A stretch of 64,000 bases of DNA from an uncultured Acidimicrobiia bacterium (GTDB lineage: Bacteria; Acidobacteriota; Vicinamibacteria; Vicinamibacterales; SCN-69-37): positions 98,862-162,861 of the forward strand of contig CBINOO010000002.1 in NCBI GenBank assembly GCA_966252305.1, in the 5' to 3' direction. Numbering within the stretch: position 1 is the stretch's first letter; every line of letters starts with the position of its first letter. The position numbers and the translations under genes were made by a program. Below are positions 4,451 through 57,356 of this stretch, piece after piece. The notes below the pieces were generated by a model. That model was not told where the DNA came from, did not search any database, and saw only the letters and a list, made by a program, of their open reading frames with translations.

Positions 4451-5265
4451 TACTGCGCCCCCTCCACGGCGATCTTGCTGCTGAAGCGCCGGGCTTCCTG
4501 TTGCTGTGACGTCACCATCTCCGCCAGACGGCCCGACGTGAGCGCGGCTTCAACCTCGGCATCGCCATCAAGCAGGCGAATGGCAATCCAGCGGGCGTTG
4601 GGGACGCCCGGTGCCGCGGCCTCGATCAGCGGGACGAGTTCGGAGATCGCGCGCTGGAATTCCGGTGTGCCTGTCACACGCAACGGCTGGGTCTCAATGG
4701 CGCCGGAGGAGACTCCGGCCACCGCATCCAGCAACGCATGCATGCCCTCACCCGTGCGCGCCGTGATCGCCACCGCCGGCACGCCCAGGTCACGCGAGAG
4801 CGATCGCACATCGACTTCGATGCCCTTGCGCTTCGCTTCATCCATCAGGTTGACGGCGACGACGACGCGGTCGGTAATTTCGAGCACTTGCAGCACCAGA
4901 TTCAGGTTGCGCTCGATGGCTGTGGCATCGATGACGACAATCGTGGCGTCCGGACGCCCGAACAGCAGAAAGTCCCTCGCAATCTGCTCGTCGTGAGAGG
5001 CAGACAGCAGCGAGTAGGTGCCAGGCAGATCGACGAGTTTGTACCGGACGGTGCCGAACTCGAAGCCGCCTTCGGCGCGACTCACGGTCTTGCCGGGCCA
5101 ATTGCCGGTGTGCTGCTTGAGGCCGGTGAGCGCGTTGAACAGCGTCGACTTGCCGGTGTTGGGGTTGCCCGCAAGCGCCACCACGCGGTCGATCCGATCG
5201 AGTGAGACGCCCATGCGCGCCAGTTCGGTGTGCACGGCGCAGCTGTCGCAATTGTGGTCGCTCAT
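4450..5265 (-). CDS. feoB: FeoB small GTPase domain as a stand-alone protein
   Basis: G1 GNPNTGKS, NWPGKTV, G3 DLPG and G4 NLMD. N-terminal HNCDSCAVH extension. TAATG overlap with the next gene. Confidence 0.9.
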   Translation of the reverse strand: MSDHNCDSCAVHTELARMGVSLDRIDRVVALAGNPNTGKSTLFNALTGLKQHTGNWPGKTVSRAEGGFEFGTVRYKLVDLPGTYSLLSASHDEQIARDFLLFGRPDATIVVIDATAIERNLNLVLQVLEITDRVVVAVNLMDEAKRKGIEVDVRSLSRDLGVPAVAITARTGEGMHALLDAVAGVSSGAIETQPLRVTGTPEFQRAISELVPLIEAAAPGVPNARWIAIRLLDGDAEVEAALTSGRLAEMVTSQQQEARRFSSKIAVEGAQ

Positions 5266-11398: not shown

Positions 11399-11422
11399 CA
11401 AAAAAGCCACCCGACGTCTTTT
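11374..11422. repeat. Perfect 22-bp inverted repeat spanning the hom/CoA-transferase junction
   Basis: aaaagacgtcgggtggcttttt-catca-aaaaagccacccgacgtctttt. The loop is the TGATG stop/start overlap. Confidence 0.9.
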
Positions 11423-12516
11423 TTTTGTTGTCCAACAATCGTCATCAGGTCCGCGAACAGCGCGTAGGCGGTCTTTTCGAGACCGCCGTCGCGCTGCGTG
11501 ATGACGACCCGTCCCAGCAGGTCGGATTCGATTTCCAGGGCATTTGCCTGACCATCCAGGATGGCCAGTGGATCGCCGGGCTCGAGTTCCTCGAGCCCGA
11601 CACGAAAAAAGACGTCGGGTGGGGTTTTCGACGAAAAAGCCCCCCCACGGGTTTTTACCCCCCCCACCCCCGTGTGGCGCCGGCCCCGCCGGAGCGCGGC
11701 CCGCGCCGCAAGCGCCGTCTCGGGACCGATGCCCGCACGCATCACGTCCTGCGGCGTGATGCGCGCGTCCATCCACACATTCCCGAGCGCCGCCACCTTC
11801 GCCGCGGCATCCCACCCGTCCACGTCCAGCGACGGGTCCGCCTCGGCGATACCCTCCGCCTGCATCCGCGCGAGGGCCGACTCAAATGACTCCCCGACCT
11901 CCAGCGCGGTCAGGATGTGGTTGGTCGTCGAGTTGATCACGCCCCGAAAGCCCTCGATCCGCACGCCCGGCATCGTCGACCGGACGAGGTTGAACACCGG
12001 GATGCCGTCCATCACGGCGCCCTCAAACAGGAAGTGGCGGCCCGCGGCCGCCGCTTCCTGTGACAGCTCATGGTACGCGTGCGCCACGGGGCCCTTGTTG
12101 GCCGACACCACGTGGGCGCCGGCCCGCAGGGCGGCGCGCACGTGCGAGACGGCCGGCTCGCCAGACTCAATTGCCAGGGTCGTCGTCTCAACCACTACGT
12201 GGGCCTCGATGTCCTGGGCAGCTCCCGCTGGGCGCGGGAGTGATACGAGTTGCGCAATCAGTTGACTGGCCGTCTCCTGGGTGGACGTTGGCCCAACCGC
12301 GTCCCCACCGGCCACCTGCTGCGCGAGTCGAACGGCGTCGAGGCCCGCGCCCAACTCATCGGGCGTCACAAAGCGGAAGCCGTGACGCCTGGTGCAGATG
12401 CCGACAATGACGGGCTCGATGTCATGGGCGCGCAGGAACGCCTCCTGTTCCCGCAACAACTGCACGAATCGCCGTGCGACATTCCCGAATCCGATGAGCA
12501 ACAGCGAAACACGCAT
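11398..12516 (-). CDS. hom: Homoserine dehydrogenase (short form without ACT domain)
   Basis: Motifs IGFGNV, HVVSANKGP, FEGAVMDGIP, NSTTNHIL and GIAEADPSLDVDGWDAAAK. Confidence 0.9.
   Translation of the reverse strand: MRVSLLLIGFGNVARRFVQLLREQEAFLRAHDIEPVIVGICTRRHGFRFVTPDELGAGLDAVRLAQQVAGGDAVGPTSTQETASQLIAQLVSLPRPAGAAQDIEAHVVVETTTLAIESGEPAVSHVRAALRAGAHVVSANKGPVAHAYHELSQEAAAAGRHFLFEGAVMDGIPVFNLVRSTMPGVRIEGFRGVINSTTNHILTALEVGESFESALARMQAEGIAEADPSLDVDGWDAAAKVAALGNVWMDARITPQDVMRAGIGPETALAARAALRRGRRHTGVGGVKTRGGAFSSKTPPDVFFRVGLEELEPGDPLAILDGQANALEIESDLLGRVVITQRDGGLEKTAYALFADLMTIVGQQKKDVGWLF
11605..11656. repeat. Second, degenerate copy of the same palindromic element inside the hom coding sequence
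   Basis: aaaaaagacgtcgggtggggttttcg shares aaaagacgtcgggtgg with the copy at 11374. The second arm is garbled and C-rich. Confidence 0.7.
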
Positions 12517-42592: not shown

Positions 42593-44014
42593 TCAGAGCA
42601 GTTTCGCTGCCAGCTCGGCGATCTTCGATCGCACCACGTCGCTCATCGTCAGGTGCGCAAACGAAGGTTCGCCCTTGAACCGTTCCACAACCTGCACGAT
42701 GCCGTTCGACAGCGCGTCCACCTCCGGCCTGTCGATCTGGTCGGGGTCGCCCGTCAGGATGATGCGGGTGCCTTCGCCGGCGCGGGTGAGCACCAGCTTC
42801 ATGTCGCCCTGCGTGAGGTTCTGTCCGTCATCCACAATGACGACGGCGTCGTGAATGGAGCGGCCGCGCAGGTAGTTGATCGGCGAAATCTCGAGGACGT
42901 TCCGCGCGAGCAGGTCCTCGATGGTTGCCGATGGCGCGCCGTTGGGACGGTCGCCATTCTCAACCGGCTGATTGGTGAACCGCGCCGAGCCGGACATCCT
43001 CCGGATGATGAAGTCCAGGTTGTCGAGAATCGGCTTCGCCCATGGCGCCATCTTGTCGTTGACGGTGCCCGGCAGAAAGCCCAGGTCGCGACCGGCCTCC
43101 GCGTTCACCCGGTACACCTCGATCTTCGACACACGGCCCGAGCGATACAGCTCGTAGGCCGTTAACAACGCCATCAGCGTCTTTCCGGTGCCGGCGATGC
43201 CCACCAGACTCGTGATGAGCGTGTCATCGTCCATGATCAGGTCCCGGGCGCACGCCTGTTCCGGATTGATCGGGCCGAAGCGCTCGGTCTGTTTGAAGTG
43301 CACGCGACGCAGGTACGACACGCCGTCGTGTTTCTTGAGGATTCCCCAGGCAGCCTTGCCGTTGCCATTCACGCGAAGTTCACAGCACTGATTGGCCAGC
43401 AGCGTCGACGTGTCGATGAAGTCCGCGAGTTCGTTGGTGGGGAGGCGCTGCTCCACGTGCAGAGCGTTGAGCAGTGGCGCCTTTTCGGTCGGCAACTGAA
43501 TACGCACACGACCCGAGTAGAACTTGTCTGGCGATGACACCGGGCGGTCGGAGTAATAGTCCTCCGCCATCAGACCACGCGCGCGCGCCTTGCAGCGCAT
43601 CGCCGCGTCGCGTGTGATCAGCACGACCGGCACATCGGGATGTGACTCCTGATAGGCGTTCGCCAGAAGGATGATCGCGTCGTCTGCGTAGCCGGGCGAG
43701 AAGCCCGGCCACGCGCGTGACACATCGAGTTCGCCGCCGTGGAACTTCACCAGGCCGCTGCGCAGCGGAATGCCGTCACGCAGCTGCGCCGGTGATGCGT
43801 CGTTCTGCAGTTGGTCCAGGAACCGGATCGTCTGTCGCGCGGTGTAGCCGACGCCGTTGGTATCGACGCGACGACGGTCCAGTTCCTGGAGGACCGGGAA
43901 GGGAATGATGACGGTGTTGTCGACCGTCAGGTGTTCGAGTGCATCCGGAGCCGAAACGAGAACGCTGGTATCAACGACATAGACCTTGCCACCAACCATC
44001 CGGGGTGGAACCAT
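42593..44014 (-). CDS. PIN-domain plus PhoH ATPase protein (PhoH2/YbeZ-like family)
   Basis: PIN motifs VVDTSVL, V.QELD and DDAI. PhoH motifs GIAGTGKT, LGFLPG, YLRGRS, DDGQN, LTRAG and GDPDQID. Confidence 0.9.
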   Translation of the reverse strand: MVPPRMVGGKVYVVDTSVLVSAPDALEHLTVDNTVIIPFPVLQELDRRRVDTNGVGYTARQTIRFLDQLQNDASPAQLRDGIPLRSGLVKFHGGELDVSRAWPGFSPGYADDAIILLANAYQESHPDVPVVLITRDAAMRCKARARGLMAEDYYSDRPVSSPDKFYSGRVRIQLPTEKAPLLNALHVEQRLPTNELADFIDTSTLLANQCCELRVNGNGKAAWGILKKHDGVSYLRRVHFKQTERFGPINPEQACARDLIMDDDTLITSLVGIAGTGKTLMALLTAYELYRSGRVSKIEVYRVNAEAGRDLGFLPGTVNDKMAPWAKPILDNLDFIIRRMSGSARFTNQPVENGDRPNGAPSATIEDLLARNVLEISPINYLRGRSIHDAVVIVDDGQNLTQGDMKLVLTRAGEGTRIILTGDPDQIDRPEVDALSNGIVQVVERFKGEPSFAHLTMSDVVRSKIAELAAKLL

Positions 44015-44140: not shown

Positions 44141-46546
44141 CTACTTGATCCCTGACGCGTCGAGCGCATACATTCCGCGCCCGTACGTCGAAATCACTAT
44201 GAGATTGTCCTGTGGCACGTACTGCAGGTCGGAGACCTGCGTCGATGGCAGGTTGCCACCGAGCACGCGCCACGTCGCGCCGGCATCGGTCGACACATAC
44301 ACGCCGAAATCCGTGCCGACAAACAGCACGTTGGCGTTGGACGGATGTTCGCGGATCACATTCACCGGTCCAGCCGGAATGTTGTTCGCGATGCTGGTGA
44401 ATGACTTGCCGTAGTCGGTGGATTTGTAGATGTACGCGGCAAAGTCGTCATCTTCGCGTCCGCGCTGCGTGATGTAGACGGTGCCTTCTGCGTGCTGCGA
44501 CGGTAACAGGCGAGAGATCCACCGCCGCGTCGGGATGCGGCTGGTCAGTTCCGACCATTCCTTGCCGTTGTCGATCGTCGAGTGCACACGGCCATCGTCT
44601 GAGCCGACGTAGAGCAGTCCGGCCTTCTTCGGTGACTCGGCCAGCGCCACGATGGTCTGATACGGAATCGCGTTCGAGTTCCGGATCAACATCTGATCCT
44701 TGTTGTTGTCGGTCAGGTCCGGGCTGATGACCTGGAAACCCTCGCCGCGGTTGTCCGACTTGTAGACGTACTGATATCCCGCGTAAATCACGCGATTGTC
44801 GTGCGGCGAGACGATGATCGGCGCCATCCACTGGGCGCGGAGCTCAGCGTCCGGCGGATTTGGCGGCTGGATGTTTGTGGTGCGCTGCGGTCCCTGCGGC
44901 GGGGTCGCTGCAGCGCCTCGGCCTCGGCCACGCGCCGGTGCAGCCACTGACAAGTCCGTGCGGCTGAAGTTGCCGTAGAAGCCGTGCGAATACACGATGT
45001 TCGGATTGGTCGGATCGATTGCGTGGTTCGAGCCCTCGCCACCCGGCGCGTTCTCCCAGGCGACGGCCGGAATGGCGTCGCGACCCTTCGACAGATCGAT
45101 ACGTCCACGGCGTGAGCCGTGATCCTGAATCGAGCCGTACGCCCACGACGAGGGACGGCTGTTGTCGACGGTGACGTTGTAGAACTGCGCGCCTGCCGCG
45201 CCCACGGCAAAGACCCACGTCTTACCGCCATCGAGCGAGTGGTAGAACCCGCCGTCATTCGTGTTGTAGAGCTTCTGCGGATCGGCCGGGTCAATCCACA
45301 GGCCGTGATGGTCACCGTGTACGCCGCCCGTGTTGCTGCCGTCCACGTTGCTGGTGGATGTGCCCTGCACGCGTTCGAACGTCACGCCGCCATTGGTCGA
45401 ACGATTGAGCGCAAGTCCCATCGTGTAGACCGTGTTTTCGTTGGTGGGGTCGACACGAATCTGTCCGAACACCCAGCCGTACGTGCCCGAGTGTTCGATC
45501 ATGTAGTCGTTGGTCTCGGAGACCTTCTTCCACGTGCGGCCCTTGTCGTCGGTGCGGTAGACCTCCGCGGCCTTGATGCGTCCGTTGGTGATCGGGCGGC
45601 CGTACGCATCGCGTTCATTCTCCTGCGGGCCGCGGCCTTCCTCGTAGTTGTCGACCAGCGCGTAGAGCACGTTCGGGTTGCTGCGCGACACGTCGATGCC
45701 GATGCGACCGCGGAACTGCGGTGCCGGCAGGCCCGCGCTGGCGTCACTCCACGTCGCACCGCCGTCGGTGCTCTTCATCACGCCGCCCTCGTTGTACCCC
45801 GGCTCGACGCGGGGATCACTCCACTTGCGGCGGATCCGCTGCCACATCGCGGCGTAGAGCGTGTTCGGGTCTTTGGGATCCATCACGAGGTCGATTGCGC
45901 CGGTGCGTGGGCTCTTGTAGAGGACCTTCGACCAGGTGCGTCCGCCGTTGATGCTCTTGAACACACCGCGCGTCTCGTTGTCGGTCCACTCGTGGCCCGA
46001 GGCGGCGACATACACGATGTCCGGGTTGGTCGGATGGACGACGATGCGGCCGATGGTCTGGGTGTCAGTCAACCCCGCATGGCTGAAAGTGCGTCCGCCA
46101 TCGGTGGACTTGTAGACGCCGACGCCGGCCATCGAGGCGCGGAAGATGTTGGCCTCGCCCGTGCCCACGTACACCACGTTGGGGTTCGAGGGCGCGACGG
46201 CGATGTCGCCGATGCTGGTTGATGCCTCGTGTTCGAGGATCGCGCGCCAGGTGCGCCCGTGGTCTTCGCTCTTCCAGAGGCCGCTGGTGGCATAGGCAGC
46301 GTAGATGTGCCTGGCGCCGTTGACGTCCACGACCGCGACGTCCGTCGCGCGGCCGCTGACGTTGGTGGGGCCCAGGTACTGCCAGTTCGTGTTCTTGAAC
46401 GGCGACGCGTCGCGCATGGTCCGATACGTGCTCCAGGCCTTGAGCAGGCCCTCAGCGTTCATCGGTGAAGGCGCCTGTTGTGCCGCGACGGCGGCAACAG
46501 ACACCACGCCCATCAGAAGTACTGCCACTCGAATCGAACCACGCAT
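44141..46546 (-). CDS. Secreted BNR/Asp-box repeat (VPS10/sortilin-like, glycosyl hydrolase-like) beta-propeller protein
   Basis: Signal peptide, W..LGP...SGR and many S.DGG.TW repeats. GGAGG ribosome-binding site upstream of ATG 46546. Confidence 0.88.
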   Translation of the reverse strand: MRGSIRVAVLLMGVVSVAAVAAQQAPSPMNAEGLLKAWSTYRTMRDASPFKNTNWQYLGPTNVSGRATDVAVVDVNGARHIYAAYATSGLWKSEDHGRTWRAILEHEASTSIGDIAVAPSNPNVVYVGTGEANIFRASMAGVGVYKSTDGGRTFSHAGLTDTQTIGRIVVHPTNPDIVYVAASGHEWTDNETRGVFKSINGGRTWSKVLYKSPRTGAIDLVMDPKDPNTLYAAMWQRIRRKWSDPRVEPGYNEGGVMKSTDGGATWSDASAGLPAPQFRGRIGIDVSRSNPNVLYALVDNYEEGRGPQENERDAYGRPITNGRIKAAEVYRTDDKGRTWKKVSETNDYMIEHSGTYGWVFGQIRVDPTNENTVYTMGLALNRSTNGGVTFERVQGTSTSNVDGSNTGGVHGDHHGLWIDPADPQKLYNTNDGGFYHSLDGGKTWVFAVGAAGAQFYNVTVDNSRPSSWAYGSIQDHGSRRGRIDLSKGRDAIPAVAWENAPGGEGSNHAIDPTNPNIVYSHGFYGNFSRTDLSVAAPARGRGRGAAATPPQGPQRTTNIQPPNPPDAELRAQWMAPIIVSPHDNRVIYAGYQYVYKSDNRGEGFQVISPDLTDNNKDQMLIRNSNAIPYQTIVALAESPKKAGLLYVGSDDGRVHSTIDNGKEWSELTSRIPTRRWISRLLPSQHAEGTVYITQRGREDDDFAAYIYKSTDYGKSFTSIANNIPAGPVNVIREHPSNANVLFVGTDFGVYVSTDAGATWRVLGGNLPSTQVSDLQYVPQDNLIVISTYGRGMYALDASGIK

Positions 46547-46595
46547 AAAACCTCCGAGTCTGGATAGTAGCCGATAGACGGTAAAATGGTCGGGC

Positions 46596-47753
46596 ATGTC
46601 CACACGCCAGGTGTATCTCGACTATCACGCGACGACTCCGGTCGATCCCCGAGTGCTCGAGGTCATGCTGCCGTTTTTTACCCAGGAATTCGGCAATCCC
46701 GCATCGGCCAGCCATGCGTTTGGCTGGAAAGCGCAGGAAGCGGTCGAGACCGCCAGACGGCAGGTGGCGGCCCTGATCGGCGCCTCAGCGCGAGAGATTG
46801 TTTTCACCAGCGGCGCCACCGAATCGAACAACTGGGCGATCAAGGGCGTGGCAGCCGCCGCGCCGGCTTCACGCCGGCATGTCGTCTGCTCGGCGATTGA
46901 GCACAAGTCGGTGCTCGAAGCGTGCAAATCGCTCGAGTCGTCGGGGTGGTCGCTGACGATCGTGCCGGTTGAGCGCGACGGGCGCGTCGATCCGGCGGCG
47001 CTGGCGGGGGTCGTCACCGAACAGACCGCGCTGGTCAGCGTCATGGCCGCCAACAACGAAATTGGCGTGGTGCAGCCGCTGGCCGAGGTCACGGCCATCG
47101 CCCACGCGAAAGGCGCGTTGGTGCACTCGGACGCCGCGCAGGCGGTCGGCAAGATTCCACTGGATGTCCAGGCGCTGGGGATCGATCTGCTCTCGTTGAC
47201 GGCCCACAAGATGTACGGCCCGAAAGGGTGCGGCGCGCTCTTTATTCGGAAGAAGACGAACCTTGCGCCGTTCATCATCGGCGGCGGACAGGAACGCGGG
47301 TTCCGCTCGGGCACGCTGAACGTGCCCGGCATTGTTGGCCTCGGATATGCATGTCATCTCGATCGGCTCGAGATGGCTGAGGAGTGTGCGCGACTGCGCG
47401 CCTTGCGGGATCGACTGCTTGAAGGGTTGTCCGCCAGGGTCGGTGGTGTGCGCGTGAACGGCACCATGGCCGCGCGCCTGCCGCACAACCTTCATGTGGC
47501 GTTTGATGATGTCGACGGTGAGTCGCTGATCATCGGCATCGGCGACATCGCGGTGTCCTCAGGGTCCGCGTGCAGCAGCGCGTCGGCCACTCCGTCGCAT
47601 GTGTTGCGGGCGTTGTTCGGCGAGGCCGCCGTGCCTGCCGCCACGGTGCGTTTCGGTCTCGGTCGGTTCACCACCGATGCGGACATCGATTACGCCATCG
47701 AAAAGTTCTCTGCGGTCGTCAAGCGTCTCCGCGACACCGCACCCGTGCGCTAG
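46596..47753 (+). CDS. iscS: IscS/NifS-type cysteine desulfurase
   Basis: Motifs YLDYHATTP, FTSGATESNN, AHKMYGPKG, GGGQERG.RSGT and SSGSACSS. Confidence 0.9.
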   Translation: MSTRQVYLDYHATTPVDPRVLEVMLPFFTQEFGNPASASHAFGWKAQEAVETARRQVAALIGASAREIVFTSGATESNNWAIKGVAAAAPASRRHVVCSAIEHKSVLEACKSLESSGWSLTIVPVERDGRVDPAALAGVVTEQTALVSVMAANNEIGVVQPLAEVTAIAHAKGALVHSDAAQAVGKIPLDVQALGIDLLSLTAHKMYGPKGCGALFIRKKTNLAPFIIGGGQERGFRSGTLNVPGIVGLGYACHLDRLEMAEECARLRALRDRLLEGLSARVGGVRVNGTMAARLPHNLHVAFDDVDGESLIIGIGDIAVSSGSACSSASATPSHVLRALFGEAAVPAATVRFGLGRFTTDADIDYAIEKFSAVVKRLRDTAPVR

Positions 47754-47818
47754 GGCCATCGGGCCCGAACGGTGGCTCCGGGCCACCCTGTCATTCAGGC
47801 TGAAAGGAGGCCGATCTC

Positions 47819-48580
47819 GTGACTGCGCCGCCCGTATCGCATGCGGGCCGTGAAACTCGTCTTCTGCTGTTGGTGATTCTCGTCGCCGTGGCGGTACTGC
47901 TCGTACTGGCCCGGTTTCGTTTTCCCACTCCCGAACGCGTGGCGGCGACGCCGCCGGCCGGCCCGATCGAACGTCTGGCCGCCAGAGCCACTTTCGAGGA
48001 ACTCGCGCTCATCATTGCTGATGTGTCGGCACGTGTGGATGCCACGCTCACGGTCGTTGATGTCGCGTCGGTGCCCGCGCCGGCGCCGCCGCGACGGTCA
48101 GCGCCGCCCGCCGCCGCACCCGCGACACAGCGTCGGATGGCGGGACTGCGCGTGGATGCCGATCTCGCGCTGATCTACCTCCCCGCCGGATTCACCATTG
48201 TCACCGGTGACGTGGTGTCGGTGGTCGCGAGCGATCCCGAGCGGCATCTGGCACTCGTGCGTGTTCCGGCCGAGCCGTTTGCCGGGCCTGCCTCGCAGGC
48301 CGCCGCGTTTGGCGGTCCCGGATACGTCGCCGTGTTTGAAGGGTCGCGGGGCGGGTCGGCTGCGCGACCGGAGTTCATCGGTCGGACCGACTCCTTTGAC
48401 GACCCCGCGTGGCCCGATCCTCTGCTGTCGCCAGGGGGACATGCCCACCTGCGGGAGGGCGCGTGGCTCTTCACGCTGGACGGCCGGCTTGTGGGCCTCA
48501 CCGTGCCTGATGGCCCCGGCGTTGCCGTTGCGCGTGCCCGCACGCTCTTCGACATCGTCGAGAGGCTGCGCACGCAATGA
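47819..48580 (+). CDS. Membrane-anchored protein with a degenerate trypsin/HtrA-like fold and no catalytic motif
   Basis: Strong AAAGGAGG RBS and an N-terminal TM helix. VVASDPERHLALVRV and GAWLFTLDGRLVGL echo HtrA strands, but DLA and GNSGG are missing. Confidence 0.6.
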   Translation: MTAPPVSHAGRETRLLLLVILVAVAVLLVLARFRFPTPERVAATPPAGPIERLAARATFEELALIIADVSARVDATLTVVDVASVPAPAPPRRSAPPAAAPATQRRMAGLRVDADLALIYLPAGFTIVTGDVVSVVASDPERHLALVRVPAEPFAGPASQAAAFGGPGYVAVFEGSRGGSAARPEFIGRTDSFDDPAWPDPLLSPGGHAHLREGAWLFTLDGRLVGLTVPDGPGVAVARARTLFDIVERLRTQ

Positions 48581-49755
48581 AACAACGCCGACAGCGAGAG
48601 CTGGGCGGGGCCGACCCGCTCGATCGTCGTCTCGGGGCGCCGCCGCCGTCGCCGTTCTCCTGGTTCCTGTCGCTGCTGCGCACGCGATCGGCCCTCGGCC
48701 TGGCGCCGTCACTGACGCCGGCCGTCGTCTTTGTGCCGATCGGAATTGTGGTGGGTCCGCTTGGGCTCGATCTGATTGGGCCCCGCATGCGGTCGCTGCT
48801 CGACCTGAGCGTGACACTGGCGCTCACGCTGCTCGGGGTGTTCGTCGGCATGGCACTGGGGCGCCAGCGTCGCACGGCCGCCCGCCTCCTGGCGGCGGCC
48901 AGCCTCGAAAGTGCGATGACGATCCTGGCGGTTGCCGGCGCGACCGTCTACCTCGTGGCCTCGACCGGACTCCCCCTCGACGCGTCGGCGATCATCGTCG
49001 CGCTCGCTTTGGGTCTGTGTGCGTCGGCTTCGTCGGCGACTTCTGCCGATCCCAACGCCGACCCGGCTGCTGCGATCGCGACAGATGTCGCTGACCTCGA
49101 CGACATCCTGCCCATCGTGGTTGCCGCCGGCGTGTTCACCGTCGCGACCGGCACGGGCGCTGAGCGCTGGTGGATCGCGCTCATGCCTGTCGGGCTCGGA
49201 CTGGTGACCGGACTGATTGGCTGGCTGCTCTTCGAGCGAGCGGAGTCCGTGGCTGAGCGCGGCGTGTATGTGCTCGGCACGCTGGCGCTGGCCGGTGGCG
49301 CGGCCGCATACATCGATGTCTCTCCGCTGTCGGTGGGGCTGGTGGCTGGTCTGGTCTGGACGCGCGCGCCCGGTCGCGCCGATCGAATTGTCCGCGACGA
49401 CCTCGGCAAACTGCAGCATTCGCTTGTGGTGCTGCTGTTGCTCACCGCCGGCGCACTGTGGATGCCATCGCCATCCGGCGCGTGGCTGCTCGTGCCGTAT
49501 CTGCTGTTCCGGCTTGCGGGCAAAGTGGCAGGCGGATGGCTTGCCGCGCGCATGCTCGGCGACGTGCGACCATCCGACATGGCGGCGTACCTCATGTCGC
49601 CTGGAGTCGTCGGGATCGCATTCGCGCTCAACTTCCGGCAGATCCTGCCGGTCGCGACTGGTGACGCCCTGTTGTGGGCCGTGACGATCGGTACCGCGCT
49701 GTTTGAAGTCTTTGCGGTGGTGGCGTTGCCCATGTGGCGGGGAGCGCGACGGTAA
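48577..49755 (+). CDS. Polytopic membrane protein, cation:proton antiporter (CPA)-like
   Basis: About 11-12 hydrophobic segments. Motifs GIVVGPLGL.LI, A.LDD, SPL.VG..AG and LFRLAGK..GG. Confidence 0.65.
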   Translation: MKQRRQRELGGADPLDRRLGAPPPSPFSWFLSLLRTRSALGLAPSLTPAVVFVPIGIVVGPLGLDLIGPRMRSLLDLSVTLALTLLGVFVGMALGRQRRTAARLLAAASLESAMTILAVAGATVYLVASTGLPLDASAIIVALALGLCASASSATSADPNADPAAAIATDVADLDDILPIVVAAGVFTVATGTGAERWWIALMPVGLGLVTGLIGWLLFERAESVAERGVYVLGTLALAGGAAAYIDVSPLSVGLVAGLVWTRAPGRADRIVRDDLGKLQHSLVVLLLLTAGALWMPSPSGAWLLVPYLLFRLAGKVAGGWLAARMLGDVRPSDMAAYLMSPGVVGIAFALNFRQILPVATGDALLWAVTIGTALFEVFAVVALPMWRGARR

Positions 49756-52466
49756 TGCGACGCCTTGCCGCCCTGACGATCACGATCATTCTCGCCTGGC
49801 TGCTCGTGGCCCGGCTGGGTGACACGACGGCGACGACCACTGCGCTTGCGCTCGGTGTCGCGCTCATCGCAGCGACGATCGTCGGCTGGCTGCTCGAGTT
49901 CGTGCGCCTCCCAAGGCTGACAGGGTACCTGGCCTTCGGCCTGGTCTGCGGCCCGTTTGTCGCCGACATCATCACCCGACCAATGGCGCGCGACCTGCAG
50001 CTGGTCAACGGCCTGGCCATCGCGGTGATCGCGTTCAGTGCCGGTCTCCAGCTCAACATCTCGCGGCTGCGCGCGCGCCTGCGCACGATTTCAACGATGG
50101 CCGCCGTGACCATCGGCCTGACCTTCGTCGGGTTGTATGCGCTGCTGTTTTTTGCGTGGCCCTGGCTGCCGATTGCGCCGGACGTCACCCTGGCTCAGCG
50201 CGCAGCCATCGTGGCGGTGGCCACCTCGGTGCTTGTGGCGTTTTCTCCCACGGTGACGTTGGCCGTGATGGCCGAAACGCGCGCGCGCGGACGCCTGGCC
50301 GAACTGACCCTCGCCGTGGTCGTGCTTGGCGACCTTGCGCTGATCCTGCTGTTTGCGATTTCGATGGAGTGGACCCGCGGCGTGTTCCTCGAAACGCCGA
50401 ACGCGCCGGAACTGGTGGCGTCCCTCCTGTGGGAGCTGCCGGGCTCGATGGCCTTTGGCGTCGCGGTGGGCGCATTGTTCGCGTTGTACCTGCGATGGGT
50501 TGGTCGCGAAGTCACGCTGGCGCTCGTTGCGTTGTGCGCCGTGTTGTCCGGGGCCAGCGAGTTGTGGCAGTTCGACGGGTTGATTGCCGCGCTGGTCGCC
50601 GGCCTGGTCGTTGAAAACGTCACGACCGAACAAGGCGACGTGTTGCGGGATGCGATCGAGCGTGGATCGACGCCCATCCTGGTGGTGTTCTTCACGGCTG
50701 CCGGCGCGTCATTCCAGGTCGATGCGCTCGCCGTCATCGGCGTGTTTGCCGTCGTCATGGTCGCCATTCGCGTTGCGCTGCTGTATGTGGGCACCCAGAT
50801 CGGCGCGCGGGTCGCCCGCGCCGATGACGAGGCGACGCCGCTGTTGTGGCGCGGACTAGTGTCCCAGGCCGGGATCACGCTGGGCTTGACCATCCTCGTG
50901 TCGACCGAATTCCCCGACTGGGGCGGACGCTTCGAAACGCTCGTGGTCTCGATGATCGCGATGCACGAAGTCATAGGCCCGATTCTGTTCAAGGCCGCAC
51001 TGGTGCGCGTCGGCGAGACGGGACGGTCGGCCGGTGGACTGGTGGTCGTCTCCAACCGTGAACCGTACCTGCATCAATATGCCGACGATGGCAGCATCAC
51101 CGTGCGGGCGACGCCTGGCGGCGTCTCGGTCGCGCTTGATGCGTTGATGCGTGAGCGCGGCGGCGTCTGGGTTGCGCACGGCGCAGGCACAGCCGACAAG
51201 GCGGTCGTCGACGAACGGGACTCGGTCGAGGTGCCGCCAGAGAATCCGTCCTACCGGCTGCGACGACTCTGGCTGACACCGGAGGAAGAAGCCGGCTATT
51301 ACACCGGGTTTGCCAACGGCGCGTTGTGGCCGCTCTGCCATCAGGCGCATGTCCGCCCCGTCTTCCGCGCGGAGGAGTGGGAGATGTATCAGCTGGTGAA
51401 CCGCCGGTTCGCCGAGGCCACGGCGGCCGAAGCGCCTGCGGAAGCGTCAGTGTTCCTCAACGACTACCACCTCGCGCTCGTGGCCGAATCGCTGCGCGAA
51501 CTGCGCCCTCGTCTGCGTACTGCGCTCTTCTGGCATATCCCGTGGCCGGACACCGACCGCCTGCGCATCTGCCCATGGCGCGTCGAGATCATTCGCGGCC
51601 TGCTGGCCAACGACCTCGTGGCGTTTCAACTGCCCAGAGACCAGCGTAACTTCCTGCAGGCCGTCGAAGACGAACTGGGGGCTGAGGTCTCTGATGAAAC
51701 CGTGTACCTGGGAGACCGGCCGGTTCGTGTGGCCGCGATTCCCATTGGCGCCGACTTCGACCGCATCACCTCGATCCTGGCCGATGACGCCCTGCCTGGA
51801 CGCATGAGCACACTGCTGGATCGCTACAACCTGCGCGGCCGGGTGATCGGGATTGGGGTGGATCGCCTCGACTACACCAAAGGCATTCCCGAACGGATGG
51901 CGGCGCTTGGGCGCGCCCTTGACCAGTCGCCCGGGCTGGCGTCACGTTTCACGTTCGTGCAGATCGGGGTGCCGTCACGGGAGGACGTGCAGGGCTACGC
52001 GGAGATCTCCGCCGAGGTGGACTCCATCGTTCACGGCATCAACACCCGGCACGGCGAGGGGCCCGACAGCGGACCGATCCTCTACTTGAAGCAGTCGTTC
52101 GCGATGCCCGACCTTGTGGCGTGGTACCGGTTGGCCGACTTCTGCATCGTCTCGTCGCTGCATGACGGCATGAACCTCGTCGCCAAGGAGTTCGTGGCCG
52201 CGCGTGACGACTTCGGGGGCGTCCTGATTCTCAGCGAACTGGCGGGCGCCGCGCAGGAGCTCGAAGAGGCGCTGATCATCAACCCGTACGACGAGCGGGG
52301 ATTCACCGACGCGATCCTGCACGCCGTTGCGATGCCCGAGTGGGAGGTGCGGCGACGTATGCAGGCCCTGCGTCGACGAGTGGCCGGACGCGACGTGCTT
52401 GCGTGGGCCTCCGACATCCTGCATCAACTCGAACGAAGAAAGGTGGGAGGGTTCTTTTCTGGCTGA
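49755..52466 (+). CDS. otsA: Fusion of a cation:proton antiporter-like domain (to ~51020) and trehalose-6-phosphate synthase (GT20, from ~51039)
   Basis: N-terminal half: LPRLTGY..G...GP, IAF.AG.., SP..TLAV..E..ARG, SQAG..LGL and E.IGP. C-terminal half: VVSNREP, GGV..AL, YY.GFAN..LWPLCH, DYHL, FWHIPWP, DRLDYTKG and DGMNLVAKE. Confidence 0.88.
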   Translation: MRRLAALTITIILAWLLVARLGDTTATTTALALGVALIAATIVGWLLEFVRLPRLTGYLAFGLVCGPFVADIITRPMARDLQLVNGLAIAVIAFSAGLQLNISRLRARLRTISTMAAVTIGLTFVGLYALLFFAWPWLPIAPDVTLAQRAAIVAVATSVLVAFSPTVTLAVMAETRARGRLAELTLAVVVLGDLALILLFAISMEWTRGVFLETPNAPELVASLLWELPGSMAFGVAVGALFALYLRWVGREVTLALVALCAVLSGASELWQFDGLIAALVAGLVVENVTTEQGDVLRDAIERGSTPILVVFFTAAGASFQVDALAVIGVFAVVMVAIRVALLYVGTQIGARVARADDEATPLLWRGLVSQAGITLGLTILVSTEFPDWGGRFETLVVSMIAMHEVIGPILFKAALVRVGETGRSAGGLVVVSNREPYLHQYADDGSITVRATPGGVSVALDALMRERGGVWVAHGAGTADKAVVDERDSVEVPPENPSYRLRRLWLTPEEEAGYYTGFANGALWPLCHQAHVRPVFRAEEWEMYQLVNRRFAEATAAEAPAEASVFLNDYHLALVAESLRELRPRLRTALFWHIPWPDTDRLRICPWRVEIIRGLLANDLVAFQLPRDQRNFLQAVEDELGAEVSDETVYLGDRPVRVAAIPIGADFDRITSILADDALPGRMSTLLDRYNLRGRVIGIGVDRLDYTKGIPERMAALGRALDQSPGLASRFTFVQIGVPSREDVQGYAEISAEVDSIVHGINTRHGEGPDSGPILYLKQSFAMPDLVAWYRLADFCIVSSLHDGMNLVAKEFVAARDDFGGVLILSELAGAAQELEEALIINPYDERGFTDAILHAVAMPEWEVRRRMQALRRRVAGRDVLAWASDILHQLERRKVGGFFSG

Positions 52467-53277
52467 ATCACCCGACGTGGTGGCCGGCGCCGTGCTGGAT
52501 TGGCTTGCGGAGCGGCCATTGCTGCTCGCCACGGACTTTGACGGAACACTGGCGGACATCGCTCCGACACCTGATGCGGCGGTGATGTCGGAGAACGTCG
52601 CGACCGCGCTCGCGCAATTGTCAGAACATCCGCGGGCGACGGTCGCCGTCGTCAGTGGGCGGCGGATGGACGATGTTCGCGCTCGCACCGGTGACGTCGC
52701 CGCGTACGTGGGCGGGCTGCATGGTCTGGAAGTCGCGGGACCCAAGGGGGGATTCCTGCATCCGGCACTCAAGGATGTGGAGCCGGTGCTGGCAGACATC
52801 CGGCAGCGCGCCGTCGCCAGGCTCGAGTGGTGTGAGGGTGTCGTCATCGAAGACAAACAGTTCGCGTTGACGTGCCATGTACGCCGCGTCGCGCCAGAGC
52901 TGGCGGGCCGCGCTCTGGGGCAGTTCCTGGATATTGCCCAGCCGGCGCTTGACGCCGATGTGCTGCGCGCCCTGCCCGGCGCGCAGGCGCTGGAACTGCT
53001 GCCGTCGGTGGACTGGCACAAAGGCAAGGCCGTCGAGTGGATCCGCTCGGTGGTCGACACCGGACCGCAGTCGGGCGTCGGCGTTGTGTACCTTGGTGAC
53101 GACCGGACCGACGAGGATGCGTTTGCCACCCTGGGACGGCGCGGCATTTCGATAGGCGTGGGCTCCAGGCCCAGCGAGCGCCTGATTCAGCATCGTCTTG
53201 CTGGACCGGCTGACGTTGGTGTGTTGCTGCGGCGGTTGCATGCGGCGCTTCCGTCTCGCGCGCACCAGGCGTCCTGA
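52459..53277 (+). CDS. otsB: Trehalose-6-phosphate phosphatase (HAD family)
   Basis: Motifs TDFDGTL, VVSGR, GLHGLE, EDK, KGKAV and YLGDDRTDEDAF. The start is uncertain (CTG 52459 or GTG 52477). Confidence 0.88.
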   Translation: MAESPDVVAGAVLDWLAERPLLLATDFDGTLADIAPTPDAAVMSENVATALAQLSEHPRATVAVVSGRRMDDVRARTGDVAAYVGGLHGLEVAGPKGGFLHPALKDVEPVLADIRQRAVARLEWCEGVVIEDKQFALTCHVRRVAPELAGRALGQFLDIAQPALDADVLRALPGAQALELLPSVDWHKGKAVEWIRSVVDTGPQSGVGVVYLGDDRTDEDAFATLGRRGISIGVGSRPSERLIQHRLAGPADVGVLLRRLHAALPSRAHQAS

Positions 53278-53304
53278 AACCAATTGCTCACTTAGAACGT
53301 CTAA
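53275..53304 (+). promoter_or_regulatory. Candidate ECF-type promoter overlapped by a palindromic PadR-like operator
   Basis: TGAAAC-N17-CGTCTAA, with the palindrome TTAGA-acg-TCTAA at 53292-53304, 6 nt before the ATG. Confidence 0.5.
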
Positions 53305-53310
53305 TGTCGC

Positions 53311-53652
53311 ATGCCGCGACCAAAGACCAATTCCGACCAGTTGCACGGGACCCTCGACCTGCTTGTGCTGCGGGTGCTCCGCTCCGGGCCGCAGCACGGG
53401 TACGCCATCACGCAGCGACTCAAGGCGCTGTCGGAAGACGTGCTGCAGGTCGAAGAAGGGTCGCTGTATCCGGCCCTGTATCGGATGGAGCAGCGTGGCT
53501 GGATTGCGTCCGAGTGGGCGGTGACCGAGCGAAACCGGCGGGCGCGCTACTACACACTCACACCGGCGGGGCGCCGGCAGGTTGAGGCCGAACGCGCCAG
53601 CTGGTCGCGTCTGTCCGGCGCCGTCAACCTGGTCATCGCAGGGACGGAGTAG
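53311..53652 (+). CDS. PadR-family transcriptional regulator (acidobacterial type)
   Basis: Motifs GTLDLLVL, HGYAI, VEEGSLYPALYRME and NRRARYY.LT..GR. Confidence 0.93.
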   Translation: MPRPKTNSDQLHGTLDLLVLRVLRSGPQHGYAITQRLKALSEDVLQVEEGSLYPALYRMEQRGWIASEWAVTERNRRARYYTLTPAGRRQVEAERASWSRLSGAVNLVIAGTE

Positions 53653-53654
53653 CC

Positions 53655-56294
53655 ATGCGTCTCTGGCGAGTGCTTCGCGCGCGGGTGCGTGCCCTGTTTG
53701 GTCGCGACGTGGTGACCGGCGAGGTCAGTGAAGAACTGCAGCACCACATCGACCTTGCCACCGACGACAACATCGCGAATGGCATGTCGCCGGCCGATGC
53801 GCGTGCCGAGGCGATGCGGCGCTTCGGGAACGTGCCCTCGCTGCAGGATCGCGCGTATGACGTACGCGGAGGCGGCGTGATTGAAGCGATCTGGCGAGAC
53901 GCCCGCTACGCCGGCCGCGTCATGCTTCGGCAGCCGGTCTTCTCGGCGATCGCTGTCGCGACAATTGCGCTTGGTGTGGGCGCCACGTCCACGATCTTCG
54001 GCGTCGCCAACGGCGTGTTGCTCAAGCCGCTGCCGTACGCCGAGCCGGATCGGCTGGCGATGGTCTGGATGACCAACGCGCGGATCAACCTCCGGGAGGA
54101 TTGGCATTCGCTCCCCAACATCGAGGACTACCGCGCCGCCAACTCGACCTTCGACGCCATCGCCGTGTACAACACGACCGCCCTCAACCTCACCGGTCAG
54201 GGAGATGCGCAGCGGGTCACCGGCGCTCGCGCGTCGGCGAATCTCTTTGACGTGTTGGGCGTGGAGGCCGCGCGCGGCCGGGTGTTTACGGCAGAGGAGG
54301 ATCAGCCCGGGCGTGACGCCGTGGTGGTGCTTTCGCACGGATTCTGGCAACGGGCATTTGGGGGCGACCCCGCCATCCTTGGCCGCACGATCGAATTGTC
54401 CGGCCGCACGCGTGAAGTCATCGGCGTCATGCCGCAGGGCTTTGCGTTTCCAGCGCCGGCCACCGAGTTCTGGATTCCGAACGCGCCCTCCGAGCAACTG
54501 CGGAACAGTCGCGGATCCCTGTGGCTGCTCGCGATCGGGCGCATGAAGCCGGGCATCAGCGTGGAGCGTGCGCAGGCAGACCTGGAGCCCATCGCCGAAG
54601 ACATCGTGCGGCGATTCCCCAATCAGGAGGGCTACGGCGTCTATGTGGCCGGATACCACGAGTCCCTCGTGGCTCGCACCCGGCCGGCCATCGTGGCCCT
54701 GCTCGGCGCGGTCACATTCCTCCTCCTCATCGCCTGCGTCAACGTCGCGAACCTGTTGTTGTCTCGCGCCTCGGTGCGGGAGCGCGAGATTGCCCTGCGA
54801 ACCGCGATTGGCGCGGGCCGATGGCGACTGGTGCGGCAGTTGCTCACCGAAAGCCTCGTCCTGGCGTGTACCGGCGGTGCAGTGGGACTGGCGCTGGCCT
54901 GGCTCGGCCTGCGCACCCTTGTGGCGACGGCGCCCGCGAACCTCCCGCGGCTGGACAACATCACGCTCGACTGGACGGTGATTGGGTTCTCGTTTGCCGC
55001 CGCGCTGGTCACCGGCCTGATCTTCGGTGTCGTGCCGGCGTGGCAAATCAGCCGCTCCGGCATCGGCAGCGCGCTCAAGGAGGGCGGCCGAGGTGTGTCC
55101 TCCGGCGTCGGTCGTTGGGTAGGGCGCACGCTGGTGGTCGTGCAGGTGGCACTGGCTCTTGTCCTGCTCACCGGCGCAGGCCTGATGGTGCAGAGCTTCA
55201 TGCGCATGCAGGGGCTCGATCTCGGCTTTGACGGCGCGCGAGTGATGACGATGCAGATGACCGTGTCGGGCCAGGCCTACCAGACACCAGCCGCGGGTGT
55301 GGCCTTCTTCGAGCGCGTGCTCGAGCGCGTGCGCGCAGTACCCGGCATCGAAAGCGCTTCACTCGTGTCCGGACTGTTTCTTTCAGCAACACCCAATTCG
55401 ACCGGCTTCAATATCGAAGGGCGACCGGTCTTCAGTCCGGTCGAGAGTGTTGAGGTGCCGGTCGACGCCGTGGCTCCCGGGTACTTCGCTACGATGCGGA
55501 TCCCCGTACGACGTGGTCGCGAATTCCAGCCATCTGACACGGCCGACGCCACACCCGTCGTCATCATCAACGAGACCATGGCCAGGCAGTTCTGGCCGGG
55601 CGAGGACCCGGTGGGACGTCGAATCACCTACGGTGTGCCCGACACCAACACCCAGTGGCTCACCATCGTGGGTGTGGTGGCCGATACGAGGCGCACCGGC
55701 TACGAAGCGCCCGTGCGGCCTGAGACCTACCTTCCGCTGGCCCAGTTTCCCTCTCGCAGCATGATGCTGGTTGCGCGCACGGCGGGAGAGCCCCTCGCGA
55801 TGCTGCCCGCGATTCGACGTGTCGTGCGCGAGATCGATCCGGGTCAGCCCATCTACCGCGAGGCGACCGTTGACGAGTTGTCGTCCGCGCTGACCGCGGA
55901 ACGCCGCCTCAATACGGTGCTCTTCGTCATCTTCGCTGTGGTCGCGGCTCTGCTGGCCGCCGCAGGCATTTACGGGGTGATTGCGTATTCGGTGGAACAA
56001 CGCAGGCGTGAGCTGGGGGTGCGTCTCGCGCTGGGGGCGCAGCCGCCGGCGGTCTTCGCCCTGGTGCTGCGCGAAGGCATGGTCATGGCGGTTGTTGGTG
56101 TCATCGGAGGCGTGCTCGCGGCACTTGCGGCGACCAGTGCCATGAGCACGCTCCTGTACGACACCAGCGCGACCGATCCCTGGACGTTCACGATGATGGC
56201 ACTGGGCGCCCTGATTGTGGCGGCGCTCGCCTGTGTGTGGCCGGCCTGGCGTGCCATGCGCGTGGACCCGCTCACGGCACTCCGGGCCGAGTGA
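53655..56294 (+). CDS. Duplicated MacB/FtsX-type orphan ABC permease (ADOP-like) with an N-terminal prefix domain
   Basis: Prefix EEL..H....GMS..AR..A.RRFG. Motifs LLIACVNVANLLL.R...R.RE...R.A.GA, RRRELGVRLALGA and P..RA.RVDP..ALR.E. Confidence 0.92.
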   Translation: MRLWRVLRARVRALFGRDVVTGEVSEELQHHIDLATDDNIANGMSPADARAEAMRRFGNVPSLQDRAYDVRGGGVIEAIWRDARYAGRVMLRQPVFSAIAVATIALGVGATSTIFGVANGVLLKPLPYAEPDRLAMVWMTNARINLREDWHSLPNIEDYRAANSTFDAIAVYNTTALNLTGQGDAQRVTGARASANLFDVLGVEAARGRVFTAEEDQPGRDAVVVLSHGFWQRAFGGDPAILGRTIELSGRTREVIGVMPQGFAFPAPATEFWIPNAPSEQLRNSRGSLWLLAIGRMKPGISVERAQADLEPIAEDIVRRFPNQEGYGVYVAGYHESLVARTRPAIVALLGAVTFLLLIACVNVANLLLSRASVREREIALRTAIGAGRWRLVRQLLTESLVLACTGGAVGLALAWLGLRTLVATAPANLPRLDNITLDWTVIGFSFAAALVTGLIFGVVPAWQISRSGIGSALKEGGRGVSSGVGRWVGRTLVVVQVALALVLLTGAGLMVQSFMRMQGLDLGFDGARVMTMQMTVSGQAYQTPAAGVAFFERVLERVRAVPGIESASLVSGLFLSATPNSTGFNIEGRPVFSPVESVEVPVDAVAPGYFATMRIPVRRGREFQPSDTADATPVVIINETMARQFWPGEDPVGRRITYGVPDTNTQWLTIVGVVADTRRTGYEAPVRPETYLPLAQFPSRSMMLVARTAGEPLAMLPAIRRVVREIDPGQPIYREATVDELSSALTAERRLNTVLFVIFAVVAALLAAAGIYGVIAYSVEQRRRELGVRLALGAQPPAVFALVLREGMVMAVVGVIGGVLAALAATSAMSTLLYDTSATDPWTFTMMALGALIVAALACVWPAWRAMRVDPLTALRAE

Positions 56295-56297
56295 TGC

Positions 56298-56930
56298 CTA
56301 CTGGACGCGGTCGTAGACGCGCTTGATCTCGGTGACCGGCAGCCGCGTCATCGTCGCCGAGATCTTGACGGTGACGGTCAGCTGCTTGCCGTCGGCGCTG
56401 GGGACGTAGTCCTCAACGACCTTGAGGGATTCCCGTGTGGTGATCTCTCGGCGCAGCCCCGACTTGCCCTCCCACTTCACCTTGATCTCGAGTGGGCCGG
56501 CCTCGGTGGCCTGCGTGGTCTTTTTGCCGTCCGTGGTGTACTTCGCGGCCATCTGTTTTGCCGGATCCGGATCGAACACGATCAGCACATCCTTCATCGT
56601 CGCCTGAATGCCAAGCGTCGGTGGCGCCTGCCGCAGCATGCGGAGATGGCTATTCAGACGTTGCGCCTCTTCGACCCCCAGATCGCCGCCGGGAGGCGGA
56701 CCGCTGCCCACTGACGTCTGATTCGGTCCACGGTCGGGTCCCGACCGATTGCCACGCCCCCGCGCTCCGGCGCCTTCGGGACCATTGGGGTTCACGCTCG
56801 CGTCGACATTGAGTTTCCAGCCGCCCGACAGCGCTGCGGGAAGATCGGCAGGCTGTGATGCGGCCGCAGTCAGGGGAAGAACGACGGCCAGCAGGCCGAT
56901 GAGTACAGGTCGTGCTCGATGGTGCGCCAT
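56298..56930 (-). CDS. Hypothetical exported protein (possible beta-barrel/lipocalin-like)
   Basis: Signal peptide, LSG.WKLN...S, a Gly-rich insert, and a C-terminal S.DGK.LTV...RVYDR. Confidence 0.7.
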   Translation of the reverse strand: MAHHRARPVLIGLLAVVLPLTAAASQPADLPAALSGGWKLNVDASVNPNGPEGAGARGRGNRSGPDRGPNQTSVGSGPPPGGDLGVEEAQRLNSHLRMLRQAPPTLGIQATMKDVLIVFDPDPAKQMAAKYTTDGKKTTQATEAGPLEIKVKWEGKSGLRREITTRESLKVVEDYVPSADGKQLTVTVKISATMTRLPVTEIKRVYDRVQ

Positions 56931-57018
56931 ATGCGCCAGACCTCCGGCAGCGATTCTACGCCCATCTCACCCACGCCACGCAGGCAGGCCAACCCCGCCT
57001 CGCCTTTTATCGTCTATT

Positions 57019-57037
57019 TGCTTCACAATGTGAAGCA
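57019..57037. promoter_or_regulatory. Palindromic operator candidate directly upstream of the second padR
   Basis: Perfect TGCTTCACA-a-TGTGAAGCA ending 1 nt before the ATG at 57039. Confidence 0.65.
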
Positions 57038-57038
57038 T

Positions 57039-57356
57039 ATGTTGGGCGAGTTTGAACATCTCGTATTGCTGGCCGTGTTGCGGCTGGGTGAAGACGCGTA
57101 TGGCGCCACCATCCGGCGGGAGATTGAGTCACGCGTACGACGGGAGCTGTCCATCAGCGCGACGTACGTCACCCTCGACCGCCTCGAAGGGAAGGGCCTG
57201 GTGCGGTCCCGCATCGGAGAACCCACGGCCGAGCGGGGCGGCCGACGCCGGCGCCACTACGCGCTGACCGCCCCGGGACGCCGCGCACTGGCGGCGAGTC
57301 ATCGCGCCTTCCGAACGATGGCCGAGGGGCTGGAAGAGGAACTGGAGCGTTCGTGA
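57039..57356 (+). CDS. PadR-family transcriptional regulator
   Basis: Motifs LGEFE.LVLLA, AYG..I, YVTLDRLE.KG and RGGR.RR.Y.LT..G. Confidence 0.92.
   Translation: MLGEFEHLVLLAVLRLGEDAYGATIRREIESRVRRELSISATYVTLDRLEGKGLVRSRIGEPTAERGGRRRRHYALTAPGRRALAASHRAFRTMAEGLEEELERS

Follow-up and report, generated by a model that had tools for sequence, protein, structure and literature searches.

Organization of the locus

The window analyzed here, a stretch of 64,000 nucleotides (nt) from an uncultured Acidobacteriota bacterium of the order Vicinamibacterales (GenBank assembly GCA_966252305.1, contig CBINOO010000002.1, positions 98,862 to 162,861), carries at 47819-53277 four plus-strand genes in which a cation/proton antiporter (CPA) membrane domain is fused to a trehalose-6-phosphate (T6P) synthase, OtsA. 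A sequence check confirmed all four open reading frames at their positions. Gene A (47819..48580; 253 amino acids [aa], GTG start) encodes a putative single-pass HtrA-like pseudo-protease, recognized by bridging profile alignments, and gene B (48577..49755; 392 aa) encodes a CPA-fold subunit with 12 transmembrane (TM) helices, assigned by hhalign and a structure model. Gene C (49755..52466; 903 aa) is the CPA-OtsA fusion, identified with Pfam, and otsB (52459..53277, with an inferred CTG start) encodes a T6P phosphatase, identified by TIGR00685 and its HAD motifs.

The preliminary description of this DNA had proposed a translationally coupled operon, and the ribosome-binding site and overlaps on which it relied are all present in the sequence. 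A Shine-Dalgarno sequence, AAAGGAGG (47803..47810, plus strand), is separated by an 8-nt spacer from the GTG of gene A; genes A and B overlap by ATGA, and genes B and C by TAATG. The likeliest otsB start is the CTG at 52459, behind GGAGG at 52446-52450, which overlaps the stop of gene C by 8 nt, with the GTG at 52477 as an alternative. Where otsB lies beside gene C in the family to which the window belongs, the CTG overlap recurs in 8 of 10 loci and the other 2 have a TTG overlap. A triple CPA-OtsA-OtsB frameshift product was also considered and rejected, as the junction fits a near-cognate start behind a ribosome-binding site and frameshifting was unsupported by any test. All four genes are under purifying selection (dN/dS of 0.03 to 0.34 in seven genus pairs; 0.09 to 0.34 for gene A). 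A scan of 46400-53700 found no sigma-70 promoter, and its two terminator-like sites (4.4 expected) are at chance level.

CPA-OtsA fusion and trehalose synthesis

Gene C matches PF00999 (residues 38 to 350; 83.1 bits, with a cutoff of 26.2) and the GT20 family PF00982 (residues 429 to 893; 365 bits). The CPA membrane domain occupies residues 1 to 419 (49755..51011, plus strand) and is modeled with 14 helices, including an extra one at the N terminus. It is joined by a linker of ∼9 residues (51012..51038), modeled at low confidence (predicted local distance difference test [pLDDT] of <50 at residues 424 to 427), to the OtsA domain at residues 429 to 903 (51039..52466). The fusion is real, and an assembly artifact is ruled out as its origin, because 118 of 120 relatives among the matches listed have both Pfam domains at ∼900 aa (a shorter protein with the two domains accounts for one more) and because a contig of run X1 covers 48642-51418 without a gap, including gene B and the fusion point.

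When searched alone by sequence against solved structures, the membrane domain of C gave no match, and the TIGR00932 score of C (52 bits) is far under the cutoff of 238. Its notable residues are S164-P165, G192-D193, and R339; among 119 fused database proteins, the position of D193 holds aspartate in 87, glutamate in 31, and glutamine in 1, while R339 is present in all 119. Two hydrophobic segments of C precede the first shared helix. NHA2 (SLC9B2), as set out in PMC8850199, also has an extra N-terminal helix, which is domain swapped; this helix and the TM10 arginine are matched in C, and the TM3 glutamate and the paired aspartates (DD) are matched in B. In the NHA2 homodimer, however, each chain combines these features, whereas here they are divided between two genes, and NHA2 ranks low among the structural matches to B (Z score of 22.4).

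CPA membrane domains that bear a cytoplasmic C-terminal domain are known from KefC, SOS1, and SLC9C1, all three of which are among the fold matches, and the two-component CPA2 systems KhtTU and AmhMT work with a partner gene. In those systems the added part regulates transport by means of a ligand, whereas C carries a complete biosynthetic enzyme and would be partnered by another membrane subunit that shares its fold. Likewise, the OtsA domain shares its fold, intact active-site motifs, and an adjacent T6P phosphatase with solved synthases (Mycobacterium thermoresistibile 5JIO and Escherichia coli 1GZ5), but the solved enzymes listed are soluble or OtsA-OtsB fusions, in contrast to C with its N-terminal CPA domain.

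The preliminary description held both trehalose enzymes to be complete, and both do appear intact. Thirteen active-site residues checked in OtsA, labeled after E. coli, are invariant in 119 of 119 fused proteins, and comparison with solved synthases gave a TM-score of 0.91 to the target, a root mean square deviation (rmsd) of 2.5, and 37% identity. The OtsB protein passes TIGR00685 (140.9 bits; cutoff, 68.05), and its HAD motifs (DFDGT, SGR, K, and GDDRTDED) were located. Because the OtsA domain scores under the TIGR02400 cutoff (422 of 565 bits), its donor and acceptor specificity is presumptive; the best full-pathway alternative, GgpS, scores lower (299 of 569 bits). Gene C is the only OtsA, and the adjoining otsB the only otsB, found in the genome, and neither TreY nor TreS scored above its cutoff there, so the fusion is probably the main trehalose route of this genome.

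Divergent membrane subunit B

Gene B carries a hypothetical annotation, is matched by neither Pfam nor NCBIfam, and gave no match when its profile was searched by sequence against solved structures. It is nevertheless homologous to the membrane domain of C (hhalign, 98.9%; E value of 1.4e-17 over 322 columns), although BLASTP between B and C gives an E value of only 0.024. The AlphaFold2 model of B (pLDDT of 83.9) has the CPA (NhaA) fold: Foldseek ranked NapA first (E value of 1.5e-7), with PaNhaP and KefC also among the best matches and SOS1 and SLC9C1 among the fold matches, and structural comparison gave Z scores of up to 30.1 (rmsd, 3.9; 348 residues aligned). The earlier proposal of two tandem CPA-like membrane domains therefore stands, through PF00999 for C and the structure model for B.

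Ion-site motif positions 1 to 8 are numbered after PMC6181914, with the register for B set by hhalign and pattern likeness. B has D175-D176 (D6-D7) and K316 (K8), together with E111 and R312. The DD motif, like D176 and K316, is present in 109 of 109 close relatives, and DD occurs in 45 of 121 wider representatives. Positions 1 to 4 of B read A-S-S-A, the small residues of Kef-like proteins without the polar fourth residue. Position 5 is valine in both subunits (V171 in B and V188 in C), so that the CPA1 glutamate is absent and both are CPA2-like. The first membrane domain had been described as quite degenerate; B is divergent in overall sequence, but its ion-binding motif is intact in the window copy, where B is the subunit with the fuller ion site, and B is not functionally the degenerate one in this lineage.

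Most of the helix that comes first in 13-TM exchangers is missing from B, which has no hydrophobic segment before about residue 45; residue 38 aligns to residue 22 of NapA, and residue 44 aligns to residue 13 of NhaA. Distant B proteins retain the first helix, and the exact complement of 12 and 14 helices is therefore specific to the clade of the window. With NapA of Thermus thermophilus and NhaA of E. coli, B shares the fold, D6-D7, the TM10 lysine, and the lack of a position 5 glutamate (motif from PMC6181914), and its 12-TM layout begins where that of NhaA does. In contrast to these single-gene homodimers, B is ∼20% identical, is without a Pfam match, has a TM3 glutamate and an arginine in addition, and is followed by a second divergent subunit in 43 of the 43 loci that have B. 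With ∼1,959 relatives of B at the 50% cluster level (E values of up to 1e-10), the two-gene exchanger family is large as well as unnamed.

Pseudo-protease A

Gene A likewise has no Pfam or NCBIfam match, and a sequence search with its profile against solved structures gave no match. A two-step profile bridge indicates that it is derived from HtrA and has a trypsin-like domain of the HtrA type: hhalign connects A to the partner proteins of single-CPA loci at 97.0% and these to the genome's own active HtrA at 99.3%, whereas the direct match between A and HtrA is weak (2.4%). One bridge protein between A and HtrA has a Trypsin_2 match. The catalytic His, Asp, and Ser positions of A read approximately P122, H143, and G214; none of the three triad residues is present, these positions are not conserved among 24 relatives, and the GNSGG motif is also absent, in agreement with the earlier reading of A as a pseudo-protease. 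Like HtrA, DegP, and DegS, A has an N-terminal anchor and a trypsin-like domain, and its relatives have two PDZ domains. These are lost in 11 of 11 loci of the window family and present in other families, and A differs further from HtrA, DegP, and DegS in being a conserved neighbor of CPA genes. An HtrA gene upstream of a membrane-anchored otsA (L151) was rejected as a CPA-free version of the module; its GNSGG motif is intact, and it is thus an ordinary protease.

Conservation and history of the cassette

A class-wide search of 201 genomes found C-type genes, whose scores are clearly separated from those of the next family (476 versus 334 bits), at 37 places in 35 genomes, 16 of which (15 genomes) are fused. 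Together with a search for relatives, this gave 44 loci for comparison, with one (L031) left out for its many frameshifts and 55% complete genome. Distribution figures cover the Acidobacteriota, and the source names of relatives place the system in the Vicinamibacterales of that phylum; a scan of named genomes with one protein gave only five loci.

C is fused to OtsA in 23 of the 44 loci and unfused in 21. B lies ahead of C in 43 of 44, most of the junctions overlapping or abutting, and A precedes B in 42 of 44, contig ends cutting off two. In contrast, otsB lies directly 3′ of fused C in 12 of 23 loci (10 of 11 in the window family) and nearby in 3 more. The preliminary description had named conservation of the four-gene neighborhood across the Acidobacteriota as a check. 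The genes are syntenic and translationally coupled in many genomes, but the conserved unit is A-B-C rather than four genes.

Elsewhere in the phylum, a C-like gene lies downstream of 15 of 17 distant B-like loci, in whose 1.5-kb flanks A was not detected, and in 11 of 13 loci of a sister family whose cassettes contain a single CPA gene, that gene is immediately preceded by an A-like one. The A-B-C cassettes without trehalose genes, the phylum-wide B-C pairs, and the single-CPA sister family all place the origin of the cassette before its link to trehalose and make the trehalose genes a later addition.

Trees of the CPA and OtsA domains recover the same two fused groups, the window family and a multifamily group, with unfused or free proteins between them; both are quick trees, and for one of them 23 of 55 rows, made up of near-duplicates and outgroups, were excluded. 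The linker of ∼9 residues is of near-constant length in both groups, and the fusion is kept down to ∼54% identity in at least seven families of the order. Trehalose genes also occur in other arrangements around these cassettes: treZ-treY immediately precedes B-C:otsA in L028, a bifunctional otsAB stands as a gene of its own after a single-CPA cassette in L072, and L032 has otsB upstream of an unfused cassette, in divergent orientation.

Some other members of the genus anchor OtsA differently. Among 19 such genomes, the CPA fusion is present in 7, and in 6 OtsA instead follows an unrelated two-helix anchor; none has both. Of the remaining six, four gave no match, one carries an otsA that is partial and interrupted, and one lacks any otsA match. 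The alternative anchor suggests that the membrane location of OtsA is under selection. Free OtsA relatives (∼60 to 61% identical) without a membrane domain are common in other families, and anchoring is therefore not needed for catalysis.

The second anchored OtsA is a protein of ∼740 aa with two hydrophobic segments flanking a domain without a Pfam match, usually beside otsB. It occurs in the six genus genomes and in other families (L017, L018, L020, L142 to L148, and L151 to L153) and, in the genus sample, never shares a genome with the CPA fusion.

Probable pairing of B and C

Several lines of evidence favor a heterodimer of B and C, which we consider probable, if by indirect argument. Besides the fixed gene order and overlapping junctions, these are as follows. 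First, the predicted B-C complex scored 0.57, against 0.00 for the best control (homodimers were not among the controls), with at least 87% contact agreement between runs and a partner pLDDT of at least 69. Of 157 solved pairs, 116 reached the mark for this score, as did 2 of 215 mismatches; however, those that did so at 0.60 or under comprised 18 of the solved pairs and both of the mismatches, and the tool rates 0.57 as weak. Second, the 12 helices of B and the 14 of C sum to 26, the number in two 13-helix protomers. Third, the ion-site aspartate is lost reciprocally. In fused loci, motif aspartate 7 is lost from C in 4 of 23 (two glutamate and two glutamine) and from B in 7 of 21 full-length copies, with two more B genes internally deleted, yet at least one subunit retains it in 23 of 23 loci and it is never lost from both. 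In unfused loci the losses are 1 of 21 for C and 0 of 19 for B; the contrast amounts to about three events versus one and is descriptive. The heterodimeric antiporter put forward in the preliminary description thus gains weak support from modeling.

Proposed function of the locus

The best reading is that a cassette for a likely heterodimeric exchanger captured otsA, placing the synthase under shared expression, and that the exchanger likely keeps the synthase at the membrane's inner face. We give a probability of about 0.5 to the full proposal, in which OtsA is tethered by a heterodimeric exchanger that has one or both sites working, OtsB completes the pathway, A is a partner facing outward, and ions and trehalose are linked by shared expression and location. 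We envisage the following. (i) Coupled translation would supply B and C in a fixed ratio for heterodimer formation, the extra helix of C substituting for the helix missing from B. (ii) At least one subunit, here probably B owing to its fuller motif, would exchange a monovalent cation for protons. (iii) OtsA, on a short flexible linker at the cytoplasmic C terminus of C, would produce T6P, from which soluble OtsB would produce trehalose; the cytoplasmic orientation is predicted from 14 helices with both ends inside, as in NHA2 (PMC8850199). (iv) A might act as a periplasm-facing scaffold or envelope-state partner of the exchanger. (v) Ion flux and trehalose synthesis would be linked by coexpression and colocation, through local ion concentration or pH, rather than by a rigid allosteric switch. 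A role in osmotic or drying stress may be supposed from trehalose biology only; otsAB figures in Salmonella desiccation (PMC13033924).

Several observations weigh against this proposal. The B-C score is weak and may be explained by likeness to solved CPA homodimers. B is not strictly needed, since one locus (L035) has C without B or A, B is split in another (L058), and one genome has two fused loci with an internally deleted B (L062 and L064). The single-gene relatives have NN at motif positions 6 and 7, and the whole family may therefore be atypical in transport. No otsB was found in the fetched flank of 8 of 23 fused loci. Neither tree rejects a single origin of the fusion (approximately unbiased test, P = 0.07 and 0.14), which weakens an argument from convergence. 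The genome also encodes NhaA and two other CPA genes, so the exchanger need not serve salt tolerance.

An alternative, unlikely in our judgment, is direct gating: the exchanger pair would sense ions, pH, or membrane tension and switch on the fused OtsA, with transport secondary or partly lost. In its furthest form, also unlikely, B and C would make up a heterodimeric antiporter with a fold hitherto known from homodimers, C would lend its extra helix to B, one working ion site would suffice, and in the fused lineages the pair would read cytoplasmic ions or pH and gate the synthase directly. The short, near-constant linker in both fused groups would suit such a switch, as would the concentration of motif-aspartate losses in fused loci and the glutamate or glutamine in 32 of 119 fused database proteins. 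The losses are too few to test, however, both motif aspartates are present in the window copy, and close free OtsA relatives (∼61% identical) occur without any membrane domain. Moreover, the full-length model of C (mean pLDDT of 83.5; predicted TM-score of 0.54), with its low-confidence linker, predicts no fixed CPA-OtsA interface or orientation. The preliminary description envisaged a complex that physically linked the antiporter to the complete trehalose pathway and coordinated ion flux with solute synthesis. OtsA is indeed fused to C, but the presence of OtsB or A in the complex is unsupported, as is coordination in the sense of direct coupling. On the side of gating, E. coli OtsA is activated by potassium salts; passages of PMC13033924 and PMC4390839 did not confirm this property.

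Somewhat more doubtful still is an incidental fusion, in which otsA came to lie behind a stress-regulated cassette, a single loss of the stop codon joined the two, and the halves work independently, so that only shared transcription matters. It accords with the near-equal frequency of unfused A-B-C (21 of 44), the unrejected single origin, and the lack of a predicted interface; in addition, a distant relative of C in L038 with a long C-terminal extension bearing an ion channel domain indicates that this end tolerates cargo. Its difficulties are the constancy of the linker at such divergence and across so many families and the anchoring of OtsA by another domain in genus relatives, which points to a selected membrane location.

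Quite improbable is a pair of separate homodimeric exchangers with different ion or pH ranges that are merely coexpressed: characterized Na+/H+ exchangers are homodimers (PMC8850199, PMC11953442, and PMC12072577), each subunit has its own motif aspartate, and C stands alone in L035, but the order of B then C is fixed with overlapping junctions across the phylum, aspartate 7 is present in 1 of 15 distant B proteins and in 13 of 13 partners examined, which would make many B proteins senseless alone, and the complementary helix counts and the weak heterodimer score also argue for pairing.

Each part of the tethered exchanger-synthase has a known fold, and the combination was not found in the open literature searched, which left most subscription papers outside and in which neither the fusion nor the tandem pair nor the association with a pseudo-protease was described; automatic JGI names for some homologues already give both domains. 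New here are the complement of 12 and 14 helices and the reciprocal loss of ion-site aspartate, as are the division of fused proteins into two groups, a sister cassette that combines one CPA gene with the same pseudo-protease, and a different anchor for OtsA within the genus. If nature has split a CPA between two genes and made one ion site dispensable, the part of each protomer in the elevator mechanism could be tested. The osmotic response has two phases, ion adjustment and solute synthesis, and gene expression is usually regarded as the link between them. An exchanger with an attached synthase would join them physically, and direct gating, if true, would represent a transporter-gated biosynthetic enzyme for osmolyte control.

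Neighboring genes and related loci

An IscS-like cysteine desulfurase gene (46596..47753, plus strand) ends 65 nt upstream of A and is possibly cotranscribed with it. Such a gene is directly 5′ of A in 10 of 11 loci of the window family, the 11th being cut by a contig end, and in several unfused loci it is 3′ on the opposite strand (unfused loci compared: L032, L034, L041, L042, L045, L047, and L049); it thus stays linked while its arrangement varies. Farther upstream, on the minus strand, are genes for a PIN-PhoH ATPase (42593-44014) and a VPS10/BNR-repeat protein (44141-46603), the latter also adjoining the cassette in L023 and L031. Downstream of otsB, the inverted repeat TTAGA-acg-TCTAA (53292-53304), possibly an operator, lies just 5′ of a padR gene (53311-53652), which is followed by a large ABC-permease-like gene; a second pair of padR-like and permease genes is at 56919-59953.

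The single-gene CPA family lies directly behind an HtrA-like pseudo-protease with PDZ domains in 11 loci (L039, L068, L070 to L072, L074, L076, L139, L140, L154, and L155), and in 10 of the 10 that were read, motif positions 6 and 7 are NN, with no ion-binding aspartate. In L029, nhaA (11208-12410) is directly upstream of A, and in L030 a MarR-like gene (4640-5096; labeled from sequence appearance only) and otsB are upstream of the cassette. A distant C-type subunit in L038 (2116-6018, minus strand) continues into a frame of 1301 aa that has an Ion_trans channel domain and a zinc ribbon at its end and may be a CPA-channel fusion; an assembly gap occupies the corresponding place in the matching locus, L037.

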